DNA of 40,382 nucleotides from an uncultured Woeseiaceae bacterium (GTDB taxonomy: Bacteria; Pseudomonadota; Gammaproteobacteria; Steroidobacterales; Woeseiaceae): assembly GCA_947258485.1 (NCBI GenBank), contig CAMYIS010000105.1:1-40382 (forward strand). The letters run 5' to 3'. The notes beneath the pieces are model-generated. The model searched no databases, had not been told where the DNA came from, and saw only the letters and a program-made list of their open reading frames with translations. The first letter of the stretch is position 1, and every line of letters starts with the position of its first letter. The translations under genes were made by a program, and so were the position numbers. Of this stretch, positions 1,395 through 40,382 are shown piece after piece.

Positions 1395-2759
1395 TCAGCT
1401 GAGCCCGAGCCGGGCCTGAATTTCGCGTTTGGCGTCGCGCAGCACGGTGTCCCGGTCCAGGGACTCGAGAATCTGCTTGACGACCGTCTTGGGTCCGCCA
1501 TCGCCCCACGATTTTCCCTTGGCCAGGTATTCCGCCGCCGCACGGCCGACCAGGTAGGTACTGTAATACGCAATGGCGCCCTGCGCGCCCGCCGTGAGAA
1601 TTGTCGAAAGGCCGAGCGTACCGACTTTGAGTGCGCTGGACACGAAGTGCAGGGCCCACACCGTGCCCATCAATGCGGCGGATTCTGCGACGATGACTTT
1701 CACGATGGAGCCGGCTTCCTGGTTGCTTAGCGGCAGGTCGTAGACTCGCGACAAGTGCACAACCATGCCCACGTCAATAAAAGCAGCTGCAAACAGATCC
1801 GCAACCGGGACAGGATTGAATGCCACCGCAATGCCTTTTCCGACGCAGTAAGTGCGCACGAGTTTTTCCCCGAGTTCGCGCCGCGCGGCAAGAATTCGAC
1901 GGCCAACCTGGTCGGAAAGGTCGGCTGCGAACAGGCTGGCATTGAGCGCTGCCAGCGTCTTGCCTTCGGCCTCGAGGATTTCCCACAGTCTGAGGCGCAG
2001 TTCCGCTACATCCGAATCCTGGTCTCGCGCCGATGTCGTTTCGTTACCGCCCGCATCAACGGCAACCACGGTCTGCGGCCGCGGATGCGCCGCCGTCGCT
2101 ATGACGTTGGCGGGATCGATAATTTGCTTTGTTTTCGCGCGTATCGAACGCAACAGGGCATCACGCTCCTGGCTTGTGTACAGGTCGGACTTGTTCAGCA
2201 CAACGAGCACCGGCCGACCCTGCGCCAGTACCGCTTTGAGCGCGTCCAGCTCGGTGTCCGTGATATCACTATCGAGGACAAACATGACGAGATCCGAGCG
2301 ACCGGCGACTTCCCTCGCGAGCGCTTCTCGATCTTCACCACCGGCTTCGTCCAGGCCGGGCGTGTCTATCAGGAAAACGCCGCCGGCCTCGACCTGATTC
2401 CAGGCTTGCATCGAAGAATGCCGGGTCTCGCCGTGCAGCGGACTGACGGAAAACACGTCTTCGCCGATCAGGGCGTTCAGCAGCGAGGACTTGCCGGTGC
2501 TGACCCGGCCGAATGCCGAAAGGTGCAGGTGACCGTGTTCCAGTTTGTCGAGCATCGCCTGCACGGCTTCGTAGTCATGCGCCAGCGATTCGCGCACACC
2601 GTCGGGCAGGCGCGAGTCCTGAATGAGCTCGCGTAAGCTTTCGCGTGCCAGACTCAGGTGATCTGCGCCGCCGTCAGACGGTGGCTCAGTCGACTTTTTC
2701 TTCCAGGGCCATTCTGGCAATGCGGCGAACGCCCGCTTCCAAATGCTCACTGATGCCAT
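1395..2759 (-). CDS. Era/EngA-type (MMR_HSR1-like) GTPase with a C-terminal DUF697/YcjF-like membrane domain
   Basis: Track ORF 1395..2822. GTPase motifs are G1 GRVSTGKSS, G3 DTPG and G4 NKSD. The C-terminus is a glycine-rich hydrophobic region (GMVVHL..ALMGTVWALHFVSSALKVGTLGLSTILTAGAQGAIAYYSTYLVG). I set the start at the ATG at 2759 (MASVSIWKRAF..). This still overlaps the upstream paralogue by 74 nt, so the start is uncertain; an in-frame GTG further downstream (residues VRESLAHDY) is possible. Confidence 0.7.
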   Translation of the reverse strand: MASVSIWKRAFAALPEWPWKKKSTEPPSDGGADHLSLARESLRELIQDSRLPDGVRESLAHDYEAVQAMLDKLEHGHLHLSAFGRVSTGKSSLLNALIGEDVFSVSPLHGETRHSSMQAWNQVEAGGVFLIDTPGLDEAGGEDREALAREVAGRSDLVMFVLDSDITDTELDALKAVLAQGRPVLVVLNKSDLYTSQERDALLRSIRAKTKQIIDPANVIATAAHPRPQTVVAVDAGGNETTSARDQDSDVAELRLRLWEILEAEGKTLAALNASLFAADLSDQVGRRILAARRELGEKLVRTYCVGKGIAVAFNPVPVADLFAAAFIDVGMVVHLSRVYDLPLSNQEAGSIVKVIVAESAALMGTVWALHFVSSALKVGTLGLSTILTAGAQGAIAYYSTYLVGRAAAEYLAKGKSWGDGGPKTVVKQILESLDRDTVLRDAKREIQARLGLS

Positions 2760-4035
2760 CCTCGAATTCTTTGCTGGCCGTTTCAGGTACGAGCTCACCG
2801 TGACGGGACAGAGACAACACACTTTGGCTCATGGACAGGAATTCTTCAATATCGAGATCGCGCGGCGTCGCACCGTATAGCTTGCAGAGCTGCTGCGTCA
2901 TTGTCGTGCCGACATAGCCCTGGATCAGGATATCAGTTCCGGGGCTGATCGCGGCCAGCGCGCCAACGACGGCTTTGCGAGTCGCGCTGCGAATAATCTG
3001 CTCGGAGCGCTGCAGTCGATACTGCGCTTCGGCTGCTGCAAGTCGGGTTGCAGCCATTTGGAATACGGCACGTTCGCGCCGCAGGTCCAGCGGTACATCG
3101 TCAGTCTCGAGCAGTCGATTGATCGCGACAACGAGCACACCGATGTCGGCTGGCCGGCTGCGGCGCACGGTTTGCTCGCGGCCGTCCTCGTGCCGCTCGA
3201 TGACATCGGACTCGCCGCCGGCCGTCACGGCAACCACATGGTCGCGCTGCAGTTGGCCACCAACCTCGTCGACCCGTTCAAGCAATTTCTGCATGAGCGT
3301 CGCCTGTTCCTCGCTGGTAAAGCGGTCTGCTTTGTTGAGAACGAGTACCAGCGGTTTGTCAAAAGCCAGGAGCGCTTCGATGGAACGAATCTCCGCTCGG
3401 GTCAGGTCGCTATCACACACAAATAGTACGACGTGTGCACGCTTGGCCTCATCAGCGGCAATTGCCGAAAGCTGACCGTCAATGCCACCGATGCCCGGCA
3501 CATCCGTCAGCAATATCTCGTTCCCGGCATCGTTGCGCCAGCGATAATGGCGCACATCGTCGGTAGATCCACCGACCACATCGATCAGAACGTCGGCATC
3601 GGGTACAAGGGCTTTGATCAGCGAACTCTTGCCGGTACTGATTTCACCGAAGAAACACAGGTTGATCGCGCCATGTTGCTGGCGCGTCGCCAACTCCTTC
3701 AGCTCGGCCTGCGCGCTCGCAACATCGACCCCGGCGGCTTCGGCTTCGCGGATTCGTTCTTCGATCTCCTGTTTGGTCAGCGGCCGGGATACGACGGCTC
3801 TCGCCGGCGTGATCTTGCGCCGGACGACAAGGCGCCAGATCAACCACAGCGCGGCGACGGCGAGCAACAGCATCACGGCCATGTAAGCGTAAAGGAGCGC
3901 CGGTGGTCCGGCCTTCAGGCGATCCCAAACGTTTAGCGCTGATTCAGAAATAAACAGCAATGCGCCAATCGCGATGACAAAAACCAGCGCAATGGCAATG
4001 GCTATTGCAATACGAATGAAGCGATCAAGTTTCAT
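2686..4035 (-). CDS. Membrane-anchored GTPase with two N-terminal TM helices, paralogue of the downstream GTPase
   Basis: 449-aa ORF. TM segments are IRIAIAIAIALVFVIAIGALLFI and LLYAYMAVMLLLAVAALWLIWRLVV. GTPase motifs are G1 GEISTGKSS, G3 DVPG and G4 NKAD. A coiled-coil-like region and a DUF697-like segment (AVVGALAAISPGTDILIQGYVG) follow. Confidence 0.7.
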   Translation of the reverse strand: MKLDRFIRIAIAIAIALVFVIAIGALLFISESALNVWDRLKAGPPALLYAYMAVMLLLAVAALWLIWRLVVRRKITPARAVVSRPLTKQEIEERIREAEAAGVDVASAQAELKELATRQQHGAINLCFFGEISTGKSSLIKALVPDADVLIDVVGGSTDDVRHYRWRNDAGNEILLTDVPGIGGIDGQLSAIAADEAKRAHVVLFVCDSDLTRAEIRSIEALLAFDKPLVLVLNKADRFTSEEQATLMQKLLERVDEVGGQLQRDHVVAVTAGGESDVIERHEDGREQTVRRSRPADIGVLVVAINRLLETDDVPLDLRRERAVFQMAATRLAAAEAQYRLQRSEQIIRSATRKAVVGALAAISPGTDILIQGYVGTTMTQQLCKLYGATPRDLDIEEFLSMSQSVLSLSRHGELVPETASKEFEDGISEHLEAGVRRIARMALEEKVD

Positions 4036-9046: not shown

Positions 9047-9463
9047 TTATTTGCCGTGTACCGATTCGAGATAGCTTATTTGCTCGGCTGTCAGCAGGTT
9101 CTTGAGCTTCACCAGCATGGCCATCTGCTTCTTTTTGACCTGGTTTTCGGCCAGCAGTGCCATTTCGGCGTACTCGAGAACGCGCTGTTCATTGATCGGC
9201 ATCTTGTCGAGCTCCAGCATCAATGCCTGGTAGGCCTCCTGCATATCCCACTCATGCTCGGCAACCCCCGACTGCACTTCTACCACGGCGGCCCTGATCT
9301 TCGTGAACTGGGCCTTGCTCAAGTCAAGCTCTGCCTTGTGTTCCAGGATGATATTGGGCGGAAACAACTTGCCCTTGAATACATCGTCCTTCGGTCCTGC
9401 TGCGAACGCCGGGCCCACAAGCAGTGTCACCGCGGTCAGCACTAACAAAAGTCCCTTTTTCAT
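9047..9463 (-). CDS. Periplasmic Spy/CpxP-family (LTXXQ motif) protein
   Basis: 138-aa ORF. The signal peptide is MKKGLLLVLTAVTLLVGPAFAA. Motifs are LSKAQ and LTAEQ in a helical, charged protein. Its start overlaps the anti-sigma stop by 4 nt. Confidence 0.65.
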   Translation of the reverse strand: MKKGLLLVLTAVTLLVGPAFAAGPKDDVFKGKLFPPNIILEHKAELDLSKAQFTKIRAAVVEVQSGVAEHEWDMQEAYQALMLELDKMPINEQRVLEYAEMALLAENQVKKKQMAMLVKLKNLLTAEQISYLESVHGK

Positions 9464-9822
9464 AACAACGCACCTCCATAGGTTTCGGTTGACTCGATGA
9501 GCACCGGAATCTCTTGATATATGTCAAATTGATGTTCGGGCAGCAGGCTATCGCTGGGCGCGGACCAGCTCGTGGTCCCAAGGAGCTCGTCTTCGTCAAC
9601 AAATCGCAGTTCGACCTCCCGCGGCACGAGCAACCCAAACGCGATGGCCGCAACGGCCGCCGCAGCCACCGATCCGGCGACCACCCGGCGCTGCCGCCGC
9701 AAGGTCCGAGTTCGTGCGTTCGCAACCGCCCAGATGCGATCGAATTCCGGCACGTCACCCTTTTCCACGCTTGCCTGGGCGTCGCGTACCGCCGTTCGCA
9801 GTGCTGTGTCTGAATCAGTCAT
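9460..9822 (-). CDS. Putative anti-sigma factor (single-pass membrane protein)
   Basis: 120-aa ORF that overlaps the 3' end of the ECF sigma gene by 8 nt. It has a short cytoplasmic N-terminus and one TM helix (VVAGSVAAAAVAAIAFGLLV). The call rests on position and topology only. Confidence 0.5.
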   Translation of the reverse strand: MTDSDTALRTAVRDAQASVEKGDVPEFDRIWAVANARTRTLRRQRRVVAGSVAAAAVAAIAFGLLVPREVELRFVDEDELLGTTSWSAPSDSLLPEHQFDIYQEIPVLIESTETYGGALL

Positions 9823-10345
9823 CGAATCCTGCTCCGATATTGGTCAGCTTCATCTTTAAGGTCTTCTTTGCCCGATCGTAGTGAGCCCTCCCGGTACCGA
9901 CGGTAACGCCCATAACGCCGGCTGCTGCTTCGATCGTCATGTCGCGGCAAAAAACAAGTTCAACTATGTCGCGCTGTCGCTGCGGCAATTCCTGCACTGC
10001 TTTCCACACTGCCGCATTTTCATTCGGCTCAAGCGGTTGAACGGCACTGTCGATCGCGGCCGTGCCCGCTGCCTGAACCAGCCGAAGGCGAGATGCTATG
10101 CGGCGGTAGCGGCTCCGCGCCAGGTTTTGCACAACCGAAAACACGAACGTCTTGAGCGACGACTTGTTATCGAAACGCGCCTTACCGGTTAACAATTCAA
10201 CGTACGCCTGTTGCACGAGATCCTCCGCGACAGCCGGGTCATAGTCAGAACGGGAGAGGGCCCAGCCGAATACCTGGCCGTGAATGGCTTCCAGTGCCGA
10301 TCGAGATACGTGCGGATTTTTGTGCAGAACATCACTTTCTCTCAT
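9815..10345 (-). CDS. ECF-type RNA polymerase sigma-70 family factor
   Basis: Track ORF 9815..10393. I set the start at the ATG at 10345 (MRESDVL..) because GGGAGGGGG lies directly upstream. Region 2 reads DLVQQAYVELL. Region 4 reads LPQRQRDIVELVFCRDMTIEAAAGVMGVTVGTGRAHYDRAKKTLK. Confidence 0.85.
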   Translation of the reverse strand: MRESDVLHKNPHVSRSALEAIHGQVFGWALSRSDYDPAVAEDLVQQAYVELLTGKARFDNKSSLKTFVFSVVQNLARSRYRRIASRLRLVQAAGTAAIDSAVQPLEPNENAAVWKAVQELPQRQRDIVELVFCRDMTIEAAAGVMGVTVGTGRAHYDRAKKTLKMKLTNIGAGFDD

Positions 10346-10426
10346 GCCCCCTCCCGATTGATTGGTGGCATGAGACCGATGCCTGTATGACACGCCGTGG
10401 ATGCAGGGCGAATAGGATTATGTCAA

Positions 10427-10487
10427 CTAGTGTCCTGTTTGATGTGTCGCATGATGTCAGTATGCGACACATCAAACAGGACACTAG
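10427..10487. repeat. Perfect 26-bp inverted repeat with a 9-nt loop, a probable terminator or insulator hairpin
   Basis: The left arm 10427-10452 is ctagtgtcctgtttgatgtgtcgcat. The loop is gatgtcagt. The right arm 10462-10487 is atgcgacacatcaaacaggacactag, the exact reverse complement of the left arm. The right arm contains the sheath stop codon (10484-10486). No U-tract follows on either strand. Confidence 0.9.
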
Positions 10488-12046
10488 ACCGGCGTTGCTT
10501 CGGGCGCACCGTCTATCGACGGTGCGAAAACCGTGCTGCCAACACGGCAACCAGCAGCTGTCAGGTGCAGGGTCAGCGATATCGGATAGTCGCTTCCGAT
10601 CGGATGGAATACCAGGAAGATCGTCACGCCATGCTTCTTGCCGTCGGTCCGATGACTGACGCCGGCATCGCACTGCACCACAAAGCGCTGATCGGCGAAT
10701 GCGCCGAGATCCGACAGGCCATAAAAATAGGTGAGCACCTGGGCGCGAATGCGTTTCACGAATGTCACATCGTCGGACTCAAAGACGGCCCATCGGGCTG
10801 CACTCGCAATCGAATTGATGATCTGCAAGCAGAAGCGGCGCACCGGCAGGCTCGCGAATTCTCGATGCGCCTCCGAGCCTCGACCCATGGTTACAGAACC
10901 AATCAGCCGTGCCCGGCCTGCCGGGCCTGTGGCAACGACATTGAGCCCAACGCGATTCAGCATGTGACGATCCGGTGCGTCAATAACGAGTTCGGGAACC
11001 AGCTTGCGCTGCAGCCCCATGCCCTGCTGATCGAGATCCTGCCAGGGACCGTAGGTCCGGTCCTGCTTGCAAAGCAAGCCCGCGATCGCCCCGCCGGCCG
11101 GCCGCGAGGGCTCGTCCGCTCCGCTGCGTATCATAACGCGCGGGAAATATCCGAGCATATTTGGACTTGCGTACCCGAGCTTGCGAACGCCATTTACCGC
11201 CTCTTCTACATTCGTCCACTCGGCGCGCGGATCGACAATCAACATCGCGCCACGATGGCGACAGTAAAGTTCCGCTGCGAGAATTGCGGTGGGTCCCGCG
11301 TCAAGGCTTTTCCCAGGCGGCGGCAGATACAACACGTCGAAGCTCTCGATGTTCTCGAGTGCGAACAGTCCCGTGTGCGCTTTGCGCGAGCCTATCAGGT
11401 CATAGTCCGTCAATTCGGTACCGTCGGTGCCGGGTTGTGTTGGGTCGATGTACGATGATTCAAATCGCCTGCCCTGCTTCAAGGTCGGCTCTGGTCTGTG
11501 CGCGGGATATGGATGCTCGAGGTGTGCCAACGTCGAAGTCAGCAAGGCGTCGCCAACAAAATTCTCCGCGTCTTCCTTGCAAGACACCATCTTGAACAAT
11601 TCCTGGTCGACGACGAGACCCGTCGCCGGGTTGACACGCTGCAGCGTGAGGTTGAACAAGTTGTCATCGTCGATTGCGTCGTAATCCACGGCGGCACGAA
11701 TGTACTCGGTCGAGCCGGGTTCGATTGCGCGCAACACGACTGCCGTGCCGCTCGCAGGCAAACAGATCATCGCGCCTCGCGCATTGTTCGCGACACGTAC
11801 GATGTACAGGCGCTGCCCGCCATGCTCAAAGAATTGTTTTACGGCCGGACCGAGACTCGAGCGCGACCAGGTATCACCAAAGCGACGGCGAAACTCACCG
11901 AAGTTCCGGACCAGTAACGGCGTATTGAGCGGACCACGAAGCGCGCGGCCGACAAAAGCCGCCGTCGTCTCTTTTGACACGGCAATGGACTGATCCATCG
12001 CCGCGATTTCTGTGACCGTGATTCCATGGTCAACTGCTTCTGACAA
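10484..12046 (-). CDS. Contractile tail sheath family protein (phage/eCIS-type), orphan
   Basis: 520-aa ORF with a TTG start at 12046 preceded by GGAGA-N5. The N-terminus (HGITVTEIA..TTAAFVGRALRGPLNTPLLVRNFGEFRRRFG..FFEHGGQRLYIVRV) and the C-terminal domain (LNRVGLNVVATGPAGRARLIGSVTM..LPVRRFCLQIINSIASAARWAVFESDDVTFVKRIRAQVLTYFYGLSDLGAFADQRFVVQCD) match the conserved sheath pattern. Confidence 0.8.
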   Translation of the reverse strand: MSEAVDHGITVTEIAAMDQSIAVSKETTAAFVGRALRGPLNTPLLVRNFGEFRRRFGDTWSRSSLGPAVKQFFEHGGQRLYIVRVANNARGAMICLPASGTAVVLRAIEPGSTEYIRAAVDYDAIDDDNLFNLTLQRVNPATGLVVDQELFKMVSCKEDAENFVGDALLTSTLAHLEHPYPAHRPEPTLKQGRRFESSYIDPTQPGTDGTELTDYDLIGSRKAHTGLFALENIESFDVLYLPPPGKSLDAGPTAILAAELYCRHRGAMLIVDPRAEWTNVEEAVNGVRKLGYASPNMLGYFPRVMIRSGADEPSRPAGGAIAGLLCKQDRTYGPWQDLDQQGMGLQRKLVPELVIDAPDRHMLNRVGLNVVATGPAGRARLIGSVTMGRGSEAHREFASLPVRRFCLQIINSIASAARWAVFESDDVTFVKRIRAQVLTYFYGLSDLGAFADQRFVVQCDAGVSHRTDGKKHGVTIFLVFHPIGSDYPISLTLHLTAAGCRVGSTVFAPSIDGAPEATPV

Positions 12047-12125
12047 ACCTGTCTCCGCTCGGGTCAGAAAAGCGTGCCTGCATTCTAAAGCATTCGCGAT
12101 ACCCAGTGCACTTCGATAATCTACA

Positions 12126-13058
12126 GTGTCGATAAAGCACGACGATGTCAGCAGTGCGCACTATGGCGGCAACAAGATCCGCAAACTGGAATACATACTG
12201 CAACGAGCCAAAGAACGAGGCGCGAAAAGGGTCGCTACATTTGGTGCGGTCGGCTCGAATCATGCGCTCGCGACAGCTATCTTCTCGGTACGACTGGGCT
12301 TTGAATGCACCTGCATTCTTGCTGACCAGGAAAAGACGCCGTCTATTCCGAGAACGCTGAACATGCATCGCCGGATCGGAACGGAAATTGTTCCATATCC
12401 CGGCAATGCTGAGCGTCTTGCGACCTTTCGTCGCTACCTGCAAGGCCGCCGATCCTGGGTCGTGCCGCTCGGTGGGTCCTGCTGGCTGGGTGCGGTCGGT
12501 TTTGTCAACGCCGGGCTCGAACTCGCCACCCAGGTCGCCGCCGGCGACGTTGCAGCACCACATCGCGTCTACATCGCCAACGGTACAATGGCCAGCGCAG
12601 CAGGGCTGACTCTCGGCCTGGCGTTAGCCGGGCTTCCGACCGAAGTACACGCCGTCCGGGTCGTAGACAGGCACATAACGAATCCCAAGAAGTTCGAGCG
12701 CCTGCTGCGAAAAACGGCATTGCTTCTGAACCGACTGGACCCTTCGATCGAGGCGAGCGCCGTTGATCGCGCTCAATTGCGCTGGCGCGATGAATTCTTC
12801 GCCGGTGGTTACGCGGTTGCCGACGGCATCACCGCTGATGCGGTCTCCGTCGCAAACAACGAGCTCGGACTTGCTTTGGAAACCACGTACACGGGTAAAG
12901 CCATGGCTGCGCTGTTGCATGACCTGGCGGGGGAAGACTATGCCGGGGAGAACTACCTTTTTTGGAATACCTACAACTCGCAGCCACTTCCCGTGACGAC
13001 AGACCGGCCTTGTTCGGCAGACAATATCCCTGAGGAATTCATGACCTACTTCGATTGA
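12126..13058 (+). CDS. PLP-dependent D-cysteine desulfhydrase/ACC deaminase family protein, apparently truncated at the N-terminus
   Basis: 310-aa ORF with a GTG start directly after an in-frame TAA (12117-12119). It begins at VSIKHDDVSSAHYGGNKIRKLEYIL, which corresponds to E. coli DcyD [24 protein letters not shown]. About 35 N-terminal residues, including the PTPLE strand, have no counterpart. Later motifs VPLGGS and TYTGKAMAAL are present. Confidence 0.7.
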   Translation: MSIKHDDVSSAHYGGNKIRKLEYILQRAKERGAKRVATFGAVGSNHALATAIFSVRLGFECTCILADQEKTPSIPRTLNMHRRIGTEIVPYPGNAERLATFRRYLQGRRSWVVPLGGSCWLGAVGFVNAGLELATQVAAGDVAAPHRVYIANGTMASAAGLTLGLALAGLPTEVHAVRVVDRHITNPKKFERLLRKTALLLNRLDPSIEASAVDRAQLRWRDEFFAGGYAVADGITADAVSVANNELGLALETTYTGKAMAALLHDLAGEDYAGENYLFWNTYNSQPLPVTTDRPCSADNIPEEFMTYFD

Positions 13059-13182
13059 CTCGACGCGGGAGCGGCCGGCTTTTCTTCGGTCGGCTGTTCG
13101 CGCCGCTTGAGTTCATCCTGCGCTTCGCGAGACTCGCGCTGCTTGCGCGCTATTTCTTCAAGCATGAGGTCCAGCCATTCGC

Positions 13183-17871: not shown

Positions 17872-19195
17872 ATGTCGAGGATTGAATACATGATCGCGAA
17901 AGTCGATTTCGTAAAACTTGTCACTGTGAGCCTGCTGCTGTTTGCAGCCGCAAATGGCTACGCGCAAAACGAGCTCCGCAGTACGTTCTTCAAAGACGCC
18001 GACGCTGCCAAGGCGGCGGCCGATGCAGCCAACGCCGAGTTACTCGCCCCGAGGAGCTATGAACAGGGTCTCAAAGAGTATCGCGACGCAGAGTCCGCTC
18101 TTGAACGTGGGCGCAACATCGAATTCGTTCGGTCGAATGCCGCCGACGCCACAACGTATTTCAGGACAGCGGCGGACAAAGCACAGCTCGCAAAAACCGC
18201 GTTGGCCCAGGTCATGAAGAGCCGCCAGGATGCCGCGAATGCGAAGGCGCCCCAATTGTCCGCCGAAATCTGGCAGGAAGCACAGAGGAAATTCGCCGAT
18301 GCCATCCGGTTGCTGGAACGCGGTGACCTGAAGAACTCGAAACGTCGCGACATCGAGGCAACGAGTTTATATCGCGACGCCGAACTCGTTGCGATCAAAG
18401 CTCAGTACCTCAGCGAAACCCGTCGCCTGCTGGCGGACGCCGACCGGGCTCGCGTTGGACGTTATGCGCCGATCACACTGGGCAAAGCGAAACAGCTGCT
18501 GGCGGATGCCGAACGCGAACTGAGCGAGAACCGTTACGACACCGATCTGCCTCGCAGCCTGGCGCAGCAGGCCAATTATGAGGCCAAACATGCGATTTAC
18601 CTTTCCGAGGTTGTTCGGCAGGTGCGCGACAAGAAGCTGACCCCGGAGCAGCTTGTGCTGCAGTGGGAACAACCGATGCAGGCGATCGCCGGCGTTGCCG
18701 ATGTTGTCCCCGATATGGCAGATGGCCCGGACAGGCTGACCCAGGAGCTCGTCGCTTTTTTTGAGGGACAACGCAATCAGCTGCAGAGCCTGGAACAGGA
18801 AAAAGCCGAAAACGAAGTTCGCATTGCCGACATACAGCATCATCATGCGACTTGTCGGCCTGAGCTTCGACAGCGGCGCATCGCAGATCAAATCGGCAAA
18901 CTTCGATCTTCTCGCGAAAGTCGAAAAAGCCATCGACGTTTTCCCACGCAGCGAAATCACGATTGAAGGCCACACGGATTCGCATGGCGGGGATGACCTC
19001 AACCAGACGCTCTCGCAGGCACGGGCCGAGTCTGTACAGCAGTACATGATCAACGCGATGCGAATTCCGACGTATCGCCTGATCGCGACCGGTTACGGCG
19101 AAACGCGGCCCGTCGCCAGCAACGAAACCGAAGCCGGCCGCGCGCGCAACCGCCGCATCGACATCGTCATCAAGCCCAATCTCGAAGCAACCTAG
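17872..19195 (+). pseudogene. DUF4398-repeat/OmpA C-terminal domain outer-membrane protein split by a +1 frameshift
   Basis: ORF 17872..18966 carries a signal peptide (LLLFAAANGYAQ) and three DUF4398-like repeats (LLAPRSYEQGLKEYRDAESALERG, PQLSAEIWQEAQRKFADAIRLLERG, GRYAPITLGKAKQLLADAERELSENR). It degenerates after ..ENEVRIADIQHHH. ORF 18761..19195, in the +1 frame, carries a complete OmpA-like domain from IIMRLVGLSFDSGAS through EITIEGHTDSHG to GRARNRRIDIVI. The frames switch at a (CAT)3 repeat at 18838-18846. Confidence 0.65.
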
Positions 19196-37135: not shown

Positions 37136-39065
37136 TATCATCAGCAGCGGGCGCCATTCGCTCGCACAGAAAAAGAACAAGGGGAAGACTCTGAACCGCC
37201 TAACGACCGCAAGCTTCGCGGGCATCCTAGCGTGCCTGCCACTCCTCTTTCTGGTTTCCCCGGTATTTGCCGCGGACGTCACCATTGACGCCCCCAAAGT
37301 ACTGCTGACCAACGTCGGTTTCGACGTCAGGATCGATGGGCTCGCGTCGGGTAGCCGCATCGACCTGTTGCTCAACGGCAAGACGATCGCAATGGGCACA
37401 GGAACAGGCCTTGCCGCCACCGGCATCAAGGTCGCGGAGACCGGCACCACCCGACTCGAAGTGCTGCGAAACGGCAAAACGGTCCTGGAAAAAGAGATTC
37501 CCGTAATCCCGGCGGCTGTATCAATATTGCCGCCGCTCGTCGCGATCTTGCTGGCCTTCATGCTGCGTTCGGTGATCCCCGCCCTGTTTGTCGGCCTTGT
37601 GGTCGGAGCATGGGCCATCAATGGCATGACCTGGTCCGGCGCCTTCCGTGGCTTTTTTGAAACCGGCACGATCTACATCCTCGAAACGGCGGTCAAGCCG
37701 GATCACATGGCCATCATGATCTTCACTTTCCTGATCGGAGGGATGGTGGGCGTGATCTCGCGCAACGGCGGCATGGTCGGCATTGTTGATCGCATCATGC
37801 CGTTCGCCAGCACCCCGCGCCGCGGGCAAGGCGTGGTCGCAACGCTCGGTTTGGCGATTTTCTTCGACGACTACGCCAATACAATGATCGTCGGCAACGC
37901 AACGCGTCCGATGAGCGACAAGCTGCATATCTCACGCGAAAAACTAGCCTACCTCGTCGATTCGACAGCCGCGCCAGTCTCGACGATCGCCGTCATTACG
38001 ACCTGGATCGGCTTCCAGGTCGGCCTGATCGGTTCTGCCATCGAGGGGCTCGACGGCATCGATCAAACGCCCTATTTGTTGTTCCTGAATTCCATCCCCT
38101 ACAGTTTTTACCCGTTCCTTGCGATTTTCTTTGTCTTCCTCATTGTCTACTCGGGCAAGGATTTTGGCCCGATGTACAAGGCCGAGACCCGTGCGCGCCA
38201 CAGCGGCGAAGTGCTGCGCAAGTCGTCGACGAAGAGCACCGACAAATCGGGCGACGAGTTCTATCACAAGGACATCATTCCGTGTCGGGCGATCAACGCC
38301 GTGCTGCCGATCGTGACCATGGTCTCGACCGTGATTATCGGCCTGTTCGTCAGCGGTGAAGGCGAAACGCTCACCGACATTATCGGCACTGCGAACGCGT
38401 ACTCGGTATTGATTTGGGCATCGCTGCTGGGCAGCTTCATGGCTGCCCTGTTATCGCTGGGTCAACGCTTGCTGACGCTGGATGAAACCATCGACGCATG
38501 GCTGGCCGGCGCCCGCTTCATGATGACCGGCCTCGTATTGCTGATCCTGGCGTGGGCAATCGCGGACGTTGCGGCCGTCCTGCAGACTGCGCCCTATCTC
38601 ATCACCGTATTGGGGGATTCGGTGTCCCCATACACCCTGCCAGCCGTTATATTCCTGCTCGCAGGCGCCACAGCATTTGCTTCCGGTTCCAGCTGGGGCG
38701 TTATGGCTATTCTCATGCCCCTGGTTATCCCCCTCTGCTGGGCGGTCTTGCAAGCTAACGGAATCGCAGATGCAGATCACATGCACATTCTGTACTCGTG
38801 CATCGCCTGCGTTCTAACGGGTGCCGTCTGGGCCGATCATTGCTCGCCGATTTCCGACACCACGGTGCTGTCATCGATAGCTACGGGTTGCGATCATATG
38901 GATCACGTACGTACACAGTTGCCCTACGCGTTCCTGGGCGGCGTCGCTGCCCTTCTTATTGGTGTTCTTCCGGCCGGGTTCGGACTGCCATGGTTCCTGC
39001 TGCTGCCGACTGCCGCGATAGTCCTGGTTGTTGTGCATCGGCTCCTTGCAAAACCTGTCGACTGA
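37119..39065 (+). CDS. NhaC-family Na+/H+ antiporter with an N-terminal signal peptide and an extra extracytoplasmic domain
   Basis: Track ORF 36939..39065 overlaps fdsA. No ATG or GTG lies between the fdsA stop and the signal peptide (LNRLTTASFAGILACLPLLFLVSPVFA). Candidate starts are the TTG at 37119 (after AGGGA) or the CTG at 37191 (after AAGGGGA-N5). The NhaC core reads LGLAIFFDDYANTMIVGNATRPMSDKLHISREKLAYLVDSTAAPV. Confidence 0.75.
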   Translation: MSRRTDIISSGRHSLAQKKNKGKTLNRLTTASFAGILACLPLLFLVSPVFAADVTIDAPKVLLTNVGFDVRIDGLASGSRIDLLLNGKTIAMGTGTGLAATGIKVAETGTTRLEVLRNGKTVLEKEIPVIPAAVSILPPLVAILLAFMLRSVIPALFVGLVVGAWAINGMTWSGAFRGFFETGTIYILETAVKPDHMAIMIFTFLIGGMVGVISRNGGMVGIVDRIMPFASTPRRGQGVVATLGLAIFFDDYANTMIVGNATRPMSDKLHISREKLAYLVDSTAAPVSTIAVITTWIGFQVGLIGSAIEGLDGIDQTPYLLFLNSIPYSFYPFLAIFFVFLIVYSGKDFGPMYKAETRARHSGEVLRKSSTKSTDKSGDEFYHKDIIPCRAINAVLPIVTMVSTVIIGLFVSGEGETLTDIIGTANAYSVLIWASLLGSFMAALLSLGQRLLTLDETIDAWLAGARFMMTGLVLLILAWAIADVAAVLQTAPYLITVLGDSVSPYTLPAVIFLLAGATAFASGSSWGVMAILMPLVIPLCWAVLQANGIADADHMHILYSCIACVLTGAVWADHCSPISDTTVLSSIATGCDHMDHVRTQLPYAFLGGVAALLIGVLPAGFGLPWFLLLPTAAIVLVVVHRLLAKPVD

Positions 39066-39142
39066 CCGCTGCTCTTCTTTACACAATTCATGCTTAATCC
39101 CTGCTATTGTTGGGCATGCAACATTGTTTTTAAAGGGGAGGC

Positions 39143-39757
39143 ATGACCGTGAGCAAAGAACTGAGCGAACTTGAAAAAAATCTGCAGCAGACCAAGAAAC
39201 AATTCCTGGTTACGGCGAAGAGCGCCACGAAAGAACTGGATAGGCGGCGTAAGGCTTTACGCAAGGAAATTACTCGCGCCAACGCGCGCGCCAAGCGAGC
39301 ACGGGCTCAACTCCAGAAGAAGAGCGAACGGCTGGCAAACACCACTGCAAACAAAGCAAAACGGGAATTGAGAAAACAAATCCGCAAGCTGGAAAAAGCA
39401 GTCGACGGGGCGCGGAGTGACGCAGCTCAGCTGCGCAAAGATCTGGCGCCCGTGATGGATGACCTCGCGAAAGCCCGTGATCACCTGTCGCACGCGCTGC
39501 ATATCGACCGGGCGATGGAAAAGATCCGCCGGCAGCTGGGTGGTAAACCCAAAGCGAAAAGGAAGGCCAAGAAGAAAAAGGTGACAAAAAAGAAAGCCAC
39601 CAAGAAAAAAGCCAAAAAGAAAAAGGTAACGAAGAAGAAAGCGGCCAGAAAAAAGGCGCCAGCTCGTCGCAAGACCGCGAGGAAAAAAGCCCCGGCCCGT
39701 AAGAAAGCAGCTCGGAAAAAAGCCCCGGCTCGCAAGAAAACGGCTCGAAGAGCTTAA
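39143..39757 (+). CDS. AlgP/histone-H1-like lysine-rich protein with a coiled-coil N-terminus and KK(A/V)(P/T)-type repeats
   Basis: 204-aa ORF with a strong SD (AAAGGGGAGG). The C-terminal third reads KPKAKRKAKKKKVTKKKATKKKAKKKKVTKKKAARKKAPARRKTARKKAPARKKAARKKAPARKKTARRA. Confidence 0.75.
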   Translation: MTVSKELSELEKNLQQTKKQFLVTAKSATKELDRRRKALRKEITRANARAKRARAQLQKKSERLANTTANKAKRELRKQIRKLEKAVDGARSDAAQLRKDLAPVMDDLAKARDHLSHALHIDRAMEKIRRQLGGKPKAKRKAKKKKVTKKKATKKKAKKKKVTKKKAARKKAPARRKTARKKAPARKKAARKKAPARKKTARRA

Positions 39758-39801
39758 GGAGTAGCTTGGCGCAAGAGACGCCAAGAGGCTTCCACCGAAA
39801 C

Positions 39802-39836
39802 CAAGGGCACGTGGCCAGGTAAGCCACGTGCCCTTG
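39802..39836. terminator. 14-bp perfect hairpin between convergent genes, a probable bidirectional terminator
   Basis: The sequence is caagggcacgtggc-caggtaa-gccacgtgcccttg. It lies 45 nt after the algP-like stop and 112 nt after the methyltransferase stop. The U-tract is weak on both strands. Confidence 0.55.
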
Positions 39837-39947
39837 AGACTAAGAAACCTCTAGAGTTTCATCGCTCCTCTCGCCGAAAGGCGACAGCGAAGCAATCCTT
39901 CCGGGCGCGCTAAAAAACGGTCGTTAATAGTCCCGGGCGAACAACAT

Positions 39948-40382
39948 TTATTGTTCCTTCATAGCCGTGACGAGAAAAACCTTGATTACGAGGTCGCCAA
40001 ACAGCGCCTTACCGATTCGCCATGTAAGTCGTTTTTTGGGCCTCACCGGACCTATCTGGATGTCTGTGTAACCCGATCGAACAAACATGTCATGGACATC
40101 CTTGCGAGCGAAAAAACGTAGGTGAGTTCGATCCAAGACACCGGAATCCCTGTATTCGAACCTTTTTTTGAAGGTCAGGCCGAGCAAGAATGAAAGGTTG
40201 CGTATGTTTGGGATACTGCATACGAAGGTACCGCCGGGCACCAGGCAAGCGTTCAGTTTCTCGCACACCGTCCACGGATCCACCAGGTGTTCCAGAATGT
40301 CGCCCGCGATGACGTAGTTGAAATGCTCGCTCGGAAGTTCAGCAATGACTTCTTCGAGGTCGCCTTCAAATACTTTGTCAAA
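39948..40382 (-). CDS. Class I SAM-dependent methyltransferase; the 5' end lies outside the window
   Basis: Track ORF 39948..40283 continues in frame to the window edge. Manual translation of 40382 downward gives FDKVFEGDLEEVIAELPSEHFNYVIAGDILEHLVDPWTV..LVPGGTFVCSIPN, the post-II/III motifs of Methyltransf_11/12-type enzymes. The span is exactly 145 codons. Confidence 0.7.
   Translation of the reverse strand, partial: FDKVFEGDLEEVIAELPSEHFNYVIAGDILEHLVDPWTVCEKLNACLVPGGTFVCSIPNIRNLSFLLGLTFKKRFEYRDSGVLDRTHLRFFARKDVHDMFVRSGYTDIQIGPVRPKKRLTWRIGKALFGDLVIKVFLVTAMKEQ

Follow-up and report, generated by a model that had tools for sequence, protein, structure and literature searches.

Can the sheath of a contractile machine persist in a bacterial chromosome after the rest of the machine has gone? 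This question is raised by a gene at positions 10484-12046 (reverse strand) of contig CAMYIS010000105.1 (assembly GCA_947258485.1), a stretch of 40,382 nucleotides from an uncultured Woeseiaceae bacterium that was analyzed at its full length and is called the window here. To our knowledge, every sheath protein described so far belongs to a contractile machine, be it a phage tail, a tailocin, an extracellular contractile injection system (eCIS), or a type VI secretion system (T6SS). The original prediction had described the gene as an intact orphan sheath homologue and had offered two origins for it: the last surviving gene of a decayed contractile injection system (CIS) or a domesticated sheath with a stand-alone role. 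Our results confirm the orphan homologue, contradict the decay, and lead us to consider an exapted, stand-alone sheath probable, as a whole statement that comprises the split from its partners, vertical descent, selection, and a mechanism. The part describing a conserved, selected, tube-less locus is much firmer than the part in which the protein self-assembles.

The gene and the domains of its 520-residue product are as follows.

10484-12046, reverse strand: sheath homologue coding sequence, 520 aa, TTG start, TAG stop (open reading frame call, family matches, and fold)
Residues 1-28: N-terminal arm of the sheath protein
Residues 29-85 and about 216-395: gp18-domain-III-like core
Residues 86-215: outer insertion domain
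Residues 396-505: Phage_sheath_1C-like C-terminal domain

The open reading frame (ORF) runs through its 520 codons without interruption, and PHROG, Pfam, PDB, the structure model, and Foldseek agree on its identity. Residues 2-460 of the product matched PHROG_23 ("tail sheath") at 1.8e-33. The prediction that both terminal signatures of sheath proteins are present was borne out for the C-terminus, where Pfam Phage_sheath_1C (PF17482) matched at 1.9e-6 (28.3 bits against a cut-off of 26.9). At the N-terminus, the Gp18_domIII_N signature was below threshold (E 0.021), yet PDB alignments confirmed the homology of this end with the canonical PGVYVEE...AFVG...GP region. The central domain, PF04984 (Phage_sheath_1), gave no match to the protein in the Pfam scan. 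Among the PDB sequence matches to CIS sheaths were those of Streptomyces coelicolor (8bky, 1.5e-20) and Halogeometricum borinquense (9ezm, 1.8e-19), with the N- and C-terminal stretches matched separately. An AlphaFold2 (AF2) model built on 103 homologues reached a mean predicted local distance difference test score (pLDDT) of 90.4 and a predicted template modeling score (pTM) of 0.90. The best 50 Foldseek matches of this model in the PDB were all sheaths, headed by the contracted H. borinquense CIS sheath 9ezm (E 1.7e-27, template modeling scores 0.66/0.70). These results reveal that the product is a three-domain CIS-type sheath protein. The look-up of its exact sequence returned no database record, and its relatives are named either "hypothetical protein" or "phage tail sheath."

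A foreign or enzymatic outer domain was rejected because the domain modeled alone (pLDDT 84) resembled only the outer domains of other sheaths; that of 9ezm superposes on it at 2.4 A. The models suggest that the outer domain is remodeled, not replaced. The N-terminal arm is disordered in the AF2 monomer model and aligns with the canonical PGVYVEE strand, with G8, V11, and E13 conserved. The C-terminal strand motif is mostly gone; F480 and P482 remain.

No phage or CIS gene was found among the other ORFs of the window by Pfam and PHROG scans, as had been claimed, and the synteny annotation agrees; these scans yielded no baseplate, spike, tape measure, or AAA+ ATPase gene. The search was extended to loci spanning 10 kb on either side of the sheath gene. 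The nearest relative in a classical context (locus L092) shares 34% identity, is 685 aa long, and is followed 10 nt downstream by a gp19-type tube and then by baseplate genes, Pvc16, an AAA ATPase, and a second tube. A phmmer search with 11 CIS proteins of this locus gave no match in the 91 family loci and the window (1.58 Mb). A tube hidden Markov model (HMM) built from 120 homologues likewise gave no match in these 91 loci and the window, even at E<=10. As a positive control, the same HMM matched 67 of 80 metagenome-derived loci with canonical-type sheaths (L093-L172); these tubes mostly lay no farther than about 50 nt from the stop codon of the sheath. In eight of the 13 loci without a match, less than 200 nt of sequence is available downstream, so that 67 of 72 informative loci were positive. 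The other five (L115, L118, L140, L159, and L165) carry canonical-type sheaths with at least 730 nt downstream and no tube match, and may be further independent orphan sheaths or loci with divergent tubes.

Contexts from seven sequence clusters of the family of about 520 aa were all tube-less. They contain housekeeping genes, including YkuD, a pyridoxal phosphate (PLP) enzyme, a gamma-glutamyl-cyclotransferase-like protein, oxoprolinase, a UPF0227 hydrolase, and EF-G. When a CIS tube was used as the query, the best 120 matches carried only Chloroflexota- and Actinomycetota-type names and were uninformative on Woeseiaceae. The searchable literature describes neither an orphan or stand-alone sheath family nor a CIS of Woeseia.

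The distribution of the gene bears directly on whether it is a relic. The genome scan used one genome per species, and sheath relatives were encoded in at least 543 species-representative genomes; statements on the best 80 refer to the top 80 of these at least 543 encoding stretches. The best 80 share 53-95% identity with the window protein, belong without exception to Woeseiaceae or to unclassified Gammaproteobacteria or Proteobacteria metagenome-assembled genomes (MAGs), and include four complete chromosomes. More than 120 proteins were found at 71-94% identity, whose names, where given, are those of Woeseiaceae or Gammaproteobacteria; Steroidobacteraceae names occur among more distant family members. 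The divergently transcribed PLP-enzyme gene upstream adjoins the sheath gene in 81 of the 82 loci with enough upstream sequence, and synteny extends to the flanking YkuD, M48, S49, and radical-SAM genes (66-74 of 87 loci). The PLP neighbor is kept in relatives at 51%, 42%, and 37% identity (range 36-51% in L004-L007), and in a relative at 36% identity it lies 1.9 kb from the sheath gene. Two other genes separate the pair in L007, and in L088 YkuD is followed by the sheath gene with no PLP gene between them.

The gene is under strong purifying selection. Its ORF is intact in the window and in 82 further loci, and the alignment of these 83 intact coding sequences gave ratios of nonsynonymous to synonymous substitution (dN/dS, omega) of 0.087, 0.098, and 0.096 against the closest orthologues. 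Every region is constrained (omega 0.05-0.22, pooled over 12 close pairs): the outer domain has an omega of 0.089 versus 0.11-0.14 for the core segments, and the N-terminal arm has a dN of 0.033 versus a gene average of 0.051. Because synteny is conserved and dN/dS against the closest orthologues is about 0.09, the sheath gene is not a decaying remnant. The proposal of a last gene of a decayed system is contradicted by this conservation and selection, whereas the dN/dS, the 91 tube-less loci, and a synteny shared by more than 80 species-level genomes agree with a domesticated stand-alone sheath. The orphan arrangement is conserved in relatives, with no sign of relaxed selection. One MAG, CAVROF01, holds two copies of the whole orphan-sheath locus (L012 and L016, 72-75% identity to the window protein), which are either paralogous loci or the product of a bin mixing two strains.

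A neighbor-joining tree united all sampled orphan contexts in one derived clade nested inside the tube-linked CIS sheaths. This topology is consistent with a single loss of the partner genes followed by vertical descent. Constraint was then compared between 14 orphan-clade sequences and 30 sequences of the neighboring canonical-type clade, 20 of them from tube-linked loci and 10 representing the cluster that holds P0217, a sheath homologue discussed below. Of 149 positions conserved at 90% or more in the canonical-type clade, the orphans retained 60 and lost 89, and the losses are concentrated at residues 326-498. Among the motifs lost are RGVWKAPAG, GINCLR, G-x-VVWGARTL, WKYLPVRR, FEPNDE-x-LW, and GFAPLKPAEFV, which, judging by the solved structures of T4, pyocin, and PVC, are part of the inner domains forming the sheath wall. 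Conversely, 23 positions conserved at 90% or more in the orphans deviate from the consensus of the canonical sheaths, and 19 of these positions lie in residues 86-257. The orphan clade has invariant residues of its own (A86, N87, L96, P97, E114, D123, Q136, R137, D147, Q148, Y215, F228, and G251), most of which fall within the outer insertion domain or its junction.

Constraint is also visible at the nucleotide level around the start of the gene, where the following features were identified.

12047-12125, reverse strand: sheath upstream region, in relatives common to the divergent PLP gene
12056-12053, reverse strand: GGAG Shine-Dalgarno sequence, 6 nt before the TTG
12087-12082, reverse strand: -10-like TAGAAT box, conserved, about 35 nt upstream
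12070-12064, reverse strand: UUCUGAC in the 5' untranslated region, complementary to GUCAGAA at 12044-12038

The gene has its own Shine-Dalgarno (SD) sequence and TTG start, as originally predicted. Of 82 orthologues, 78 start with TTG and three with GTG. TAGAAT, AUCUGAC, and GGAGA are conserved across orthologues at 53-95% protein identity (L001-L087). The GUCAGAA element comprises the last base of the start codon and codons 2-3; relatives pair AUCUGAC with GUCAGAU, and the UUCUGAC/GUCAGAA of the window represents a double change that keeps the outer pair. The 7-bp stem was paired in 93.5% of cells (77 distinct sequences) versus 21-45% when the partner was slid, and single-sequence folds contain this stem over the SD and start. 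Synonymous divergence (dS) was 0.15 in codons 2-28 versus 0.40-0.55 elsewhere in the gene, which suggests a constraint at the RNA level at the 5' end. A riboswitch or other known RNA upstream was rejected on the basis of a negative Rfam search of the upstream region and an RNAalifold run that returned no consensus fold. No consensus sigma-70 promoter was found upstream of the sheath gene. We infer that translation initiation of the sheath gene is deliberately weak or conditional.

Taken together, the explanation that we prefer is the exapted stand-alone sheath. In an ancestor shared by Woeseiaceae and Steroidobacteraceae, a CIS-type sheath gene would have been split off from those for the tube, baseplate, and ATPase. 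Vertical descent would since have passed it on as a single gene of the chromosome like any other, with purifying selection acting strongly on it. Its product would no longer clamp a tube. The subunits would most likely still associate with one another by way of the C-terminal sheet and the retained N-terminal arm, in which GI-x-V-x-E corresponds to the canonical PGVYVEE strand, and the outcome would be a tube-less oligomer or a polysheath-like assembly. The conserved outer domain would offer a new binding surface, and production would be kept low or conditional through translation initiation.

Several points weigh against this explanation. The neighbor-joining tree carries no support values. 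The tube search covered 10 kb on either side of each sheath gene, and a tube and baseplate may lie farther away. Many of the canonical lattice and core motifs, as well as most of GFAPLKPAEFV, are lost, so that judging by sequence the ability to polymerize may have gone altogether. RNAalifold does not call the start-region stem, z-scores are unremarkable, and the evidence for the stem is mostly conservation, with slight covariation. A weak start codon and an occluded SD would also sit oddly with a structural polymer made in bulk.

The window contains further features close to the sheath gene.

10427-10487, no strand: perfect palindrome, 26-nt arms at 10427-10452 and 10462-10487, 9-nt loop
12126-13058, forward strand: PLP-enzyme remnant related to D-cysteine desulfhydrase and ACC deaminase (Pfam PALP, 2.1e-23)
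9047-10345, reverse strand: extracytoplasmic function (ECF) sigma factor (ATG at 10345), 120-aa putative anti-sigma factor, and 138-aa signal-peptide protein (annotation)

The first two had been reported as anomalies that bracket the gene, and both exist. The hairpin arms are 100% complementary (free energy -47.5 kcal/mol, z -9.3) and overlap the TAG stop of the sheath gene. Relatives at 95%, 91%, and 86% identity read CCGGTCTAGTTGACAT or its equivalent at this site; the window has 57 extra bp flanked by a duplicated CTAG, of which the distal copy gives the same TAG stop as in relatives. The insertion is missing from L008 (95% identity), L009, and L001, the flanks of which are otherwise colinear, and no second copy was found in the window or the other 92 loci. 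The hairpin looks like an inserted miniature palindromic (inverted-repeat) element private to this genome. Its absence from the closest relatives, the CTAG duplication, and the lack of a second copy led us to reject a conserved terminator or regulatory element; Rfam returned only sub-threshold miRNA models, which are meaningless here.

The truncated PLP ORF starts at GTG 12126, 80 nt from the sheath start, and about 40 codons are missing relative to orthologues. Compared with L008, the gene has lost 126 nt, which took away codons 2-40 together with the ATG and 6 nt of leader. The 5' end is complete in all 81 orthologous loci, where it lies about 206 nt from the start of the sheath gene, and the deletion was seen in this genome only. 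A full-length orthologue matched TIGR01275 at 9e-43, below the cut-off. That the sheath gene is still under constraint next to a damaged PLP gene argues against an obligate partnership of the two. The insertion and the deletion are both private to this genome; they are accidents that have no bearing on the biology of the sheath gene.

A third lesion lies 6 kb away, where an OmpA-like gene (window 17890-19192, forward strand) is broken relative to a 488-aa orthologue in L001: the frame that encodes residues 1-318 differs from that of residues 370-488, and about 51 codons are missing. The PLP deletion, the palindrome, and this break make three indels within 9 kb, which may be genuine decay or assembly errors.

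The ECF operon lies directly downstream of the sheath gene on the same strand, as described, and is itself followed by DUF1800 and DUF1501 genes; the label "Spy-like" for the 138-aa protein found no support in Pfam, NCBIfam, or PHROG. The ECF gene comes next after the sheath gene in 42 of the 81 loci with enough downstream sequence, and on this count the operon was rejected as a constant partner. The SD and ATG of the ECF sigma gene (10345-10343) lie inside an inverted repeat on the reverse strand (12-nt arms at 10340-10351 and 10364-10375, 92% complementary) that is conserved in L008, L009, and L001, a second start-occluding stem beside that of the sheath gene.

The remaining genes of the window are those of ordinary chromosomal DNA and include an operon with BatD/VWA/DUF58/MoxR content, an aminotransferase, FdhD, formate-dehydrogenase subunits, DUF885/DUF1501/DUF1800 proteins, an L,D-transpeptidase, M48 and S49 peptidases, a radical-SAM enzyme, an OmpA-like protein, and two dynamin-like GTPases. 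The genes of these dynamin-like/DUF697 GTPases overlap (window 2686-4035 and 1395-2822, reverse strand). In L001, L003, L006, and L007, including relatives at 36-37% identity, the pair lies no more than about 6-9 kb beyond the sheath gene on the downstream side and is part of the same frozen gene order as the sheath locus. The GC content at third codon positions (GC3) of the sheath gene, 0.67, is like that of the neighboring genes. At the window edge (37521-40382), five small ORFs (107-204 aa) that match nothing in Pfam or PHROG have a GC3 of 0.50-0.62, below that of the remaining window, and may form a small island of foreign or fast-evolving DNA.

How do other explanations of the gene fare against a stand-alone sheath? 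It may be the working sheath of a split system, the tube, baseplate, spike, and ATPase of which are encoded elsewhere in the genome. The 10-kb search range leaves room for such distant partners, the protein has kept its N-terminal arm and parts of its C-terminal domain, and selection acts on all sheath domains. Nevertheless, we consider a split system unlikely. The tube directly follows the sheath in 67 of the 72 informative canonical loci and in L092 versus none of the 91 orphan-clade loci, and the motifs that tube-linked sheaths conserve best (RGVWKAPAG, GINCLR, VVWGARTL, WKYLPVRR, and FEPNDE.LW) are gone. The housekeeping neighborhood is fixed in at least 80 species, whereas CIS loci are patchy and mobile, and the searchable literature contains no link between Woeseia and a CIS. 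A functionless last gene of a degraded prophage or CIS would also lack tube and baseplate neighbors, and the lesions nearby (the PLP deletion, the broken OmpA-like gene, and the inserted palindrome) are of the kind that such a remnant would call to mind. It is nonetheless scarcely credible in view of an ORF intact here and in 82 other loci, constraint on all regions, relatives in at least 543 species genomes, conserved synteny, start codon, and upstream signals, and a GC3 like that of the neighbors.

Two further readings give the protein a partner of another kind. As a decoy or sensor in phage defense, a host sheath look-alike would bind the tail tube or sheath subunits of a myovirus and poison assembly or signal infection. 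The natural ligands of a sheath are indeed tube and sheath subunits, a low and controlled expression would suit a sensor, and in one distant homologue (L089, 32% identity) the sheath gene is followed by that of a ThsB-like TIR protein. We find this reading rather improbable, since the sheath protein, P0131, P0150, and P0217 have no match in PADLOC-DB 2.0, none of 80 related loci has a TIR neighbor, and no effector stands beside the gene in the Woeseiaceae loci; moreover, fixed core-genome synteny and vertical descent are unlike defense islands, and the tube-linked core motifs are eroded. The absence of a TIR homologue from the 80 loci and of a PADLOC match also led us to reject a defense link as a trait of the family. 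The L089 locus itself (10001-13153) encodes a sheath homologue, P0217, with intact canonical motifs, then the 514-aa TIR protein in the place of the tube, and a CHAT/TPR protein further downstream; it is possibly a one-off defense-type pairing.

The other reading makes the protein a functional partner of the divergent PLP enzyme, which it would scaffold or regulate, with the 80-nt control region in common. The PLP gene is the sole constant neighbor and is still adjacent at 36-42% identity, and the start codons are about 80 nt apart with a highly conserved stretch between them. We judge it improbable: the window has an intact and constrained sheath gene next to a PLP gene that lacks its start and 40 codons; YkuD, M48, S49, and radical-SAM genes are syntenic as well, so that adjacency may reflect a frozen gene order; and the pair is broken in L088 and interrupted in L007.

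If a stand-alone sheath is the right explanation, the consequences reach beyond this window. Woeseiaceae and Steroidobacteraceae are abundant Gammaproteobacteria of sediment and soil, and a lone sheath under strong selection in a group that ranks among the most abundant bacteria of marine sediments points to a second life for the sheath fold. The boldest form of the claim is an order-wide, vertically inherited sheath family in Woeseiaceae and Steroidobacteraceae that works in genomes devoid of any tube, baseplate, or spike, which would be the first case of a contractile-machine sheath exapted to serve the cell on its own; we hold this claim to be evenly balanced between right and wrong. Such a sheath might form a new intracellular polymer by self-assembly, or act as a scaffold through its remodeled outer domain, under translational control. 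It would extend the short list of phage structural proteins recruited to cellular roles and supply a new self-assembling protein scaffold for study. The annotation "phage tail sheath" in these genomes would then no longer indicate a prophage or an injection system, and cultured relatives (Woeseia and Steroidobacter) make the question directly testable.

Among known systems, true CIS sheaths (L092 and L093-L172) are the nearest sequence relatives of known context. The orphan shares its superfamily and three-domain fold with Cis2 of S. coelicolor (8bky/8bl4), the H. borinquense sheath (9ezm), Pvc2-4, and Afp2-4. The genes of those sheaths adjoin a tube gene within a baseplate and ATPase cluster, whereas the orphan is a fixed chromosomal gene with no tube gene in 91 loci, lacks 89 of the 149 conserved positions, and has an invariant set of its own in the outer domain. 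Orphan Hcp and VgrG proteins of the T6SS are likewise single parts of a contractile machine encoded off the main cluster; however, they are tube and spike, never sheath, and they complement a complete T6SS elsewhere, and we know of no main cluster in Woeseiaceae. Encapsulins, HK97-fold phage capsid proteins that cells have kept as nanocompartments, offer a precedent for a stand-alone, non-viral role; they differ in fold and assembly and have adjacent cargo genes, whereas no cargo or partner is evident at the orphan sheath loci. The T4 sheath protein gp18 is homologous in fold (3j2m and 9mkb are among the matches) but is 659 aa long and encoded in a tail gene cluster, and its polysheath is a by-product of assembly, not a selected function. 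Because gp18 alone polymerizes into a contracted-type polysheath without a tube, a tube-less assembly of the orphan sheath is physically plausible.

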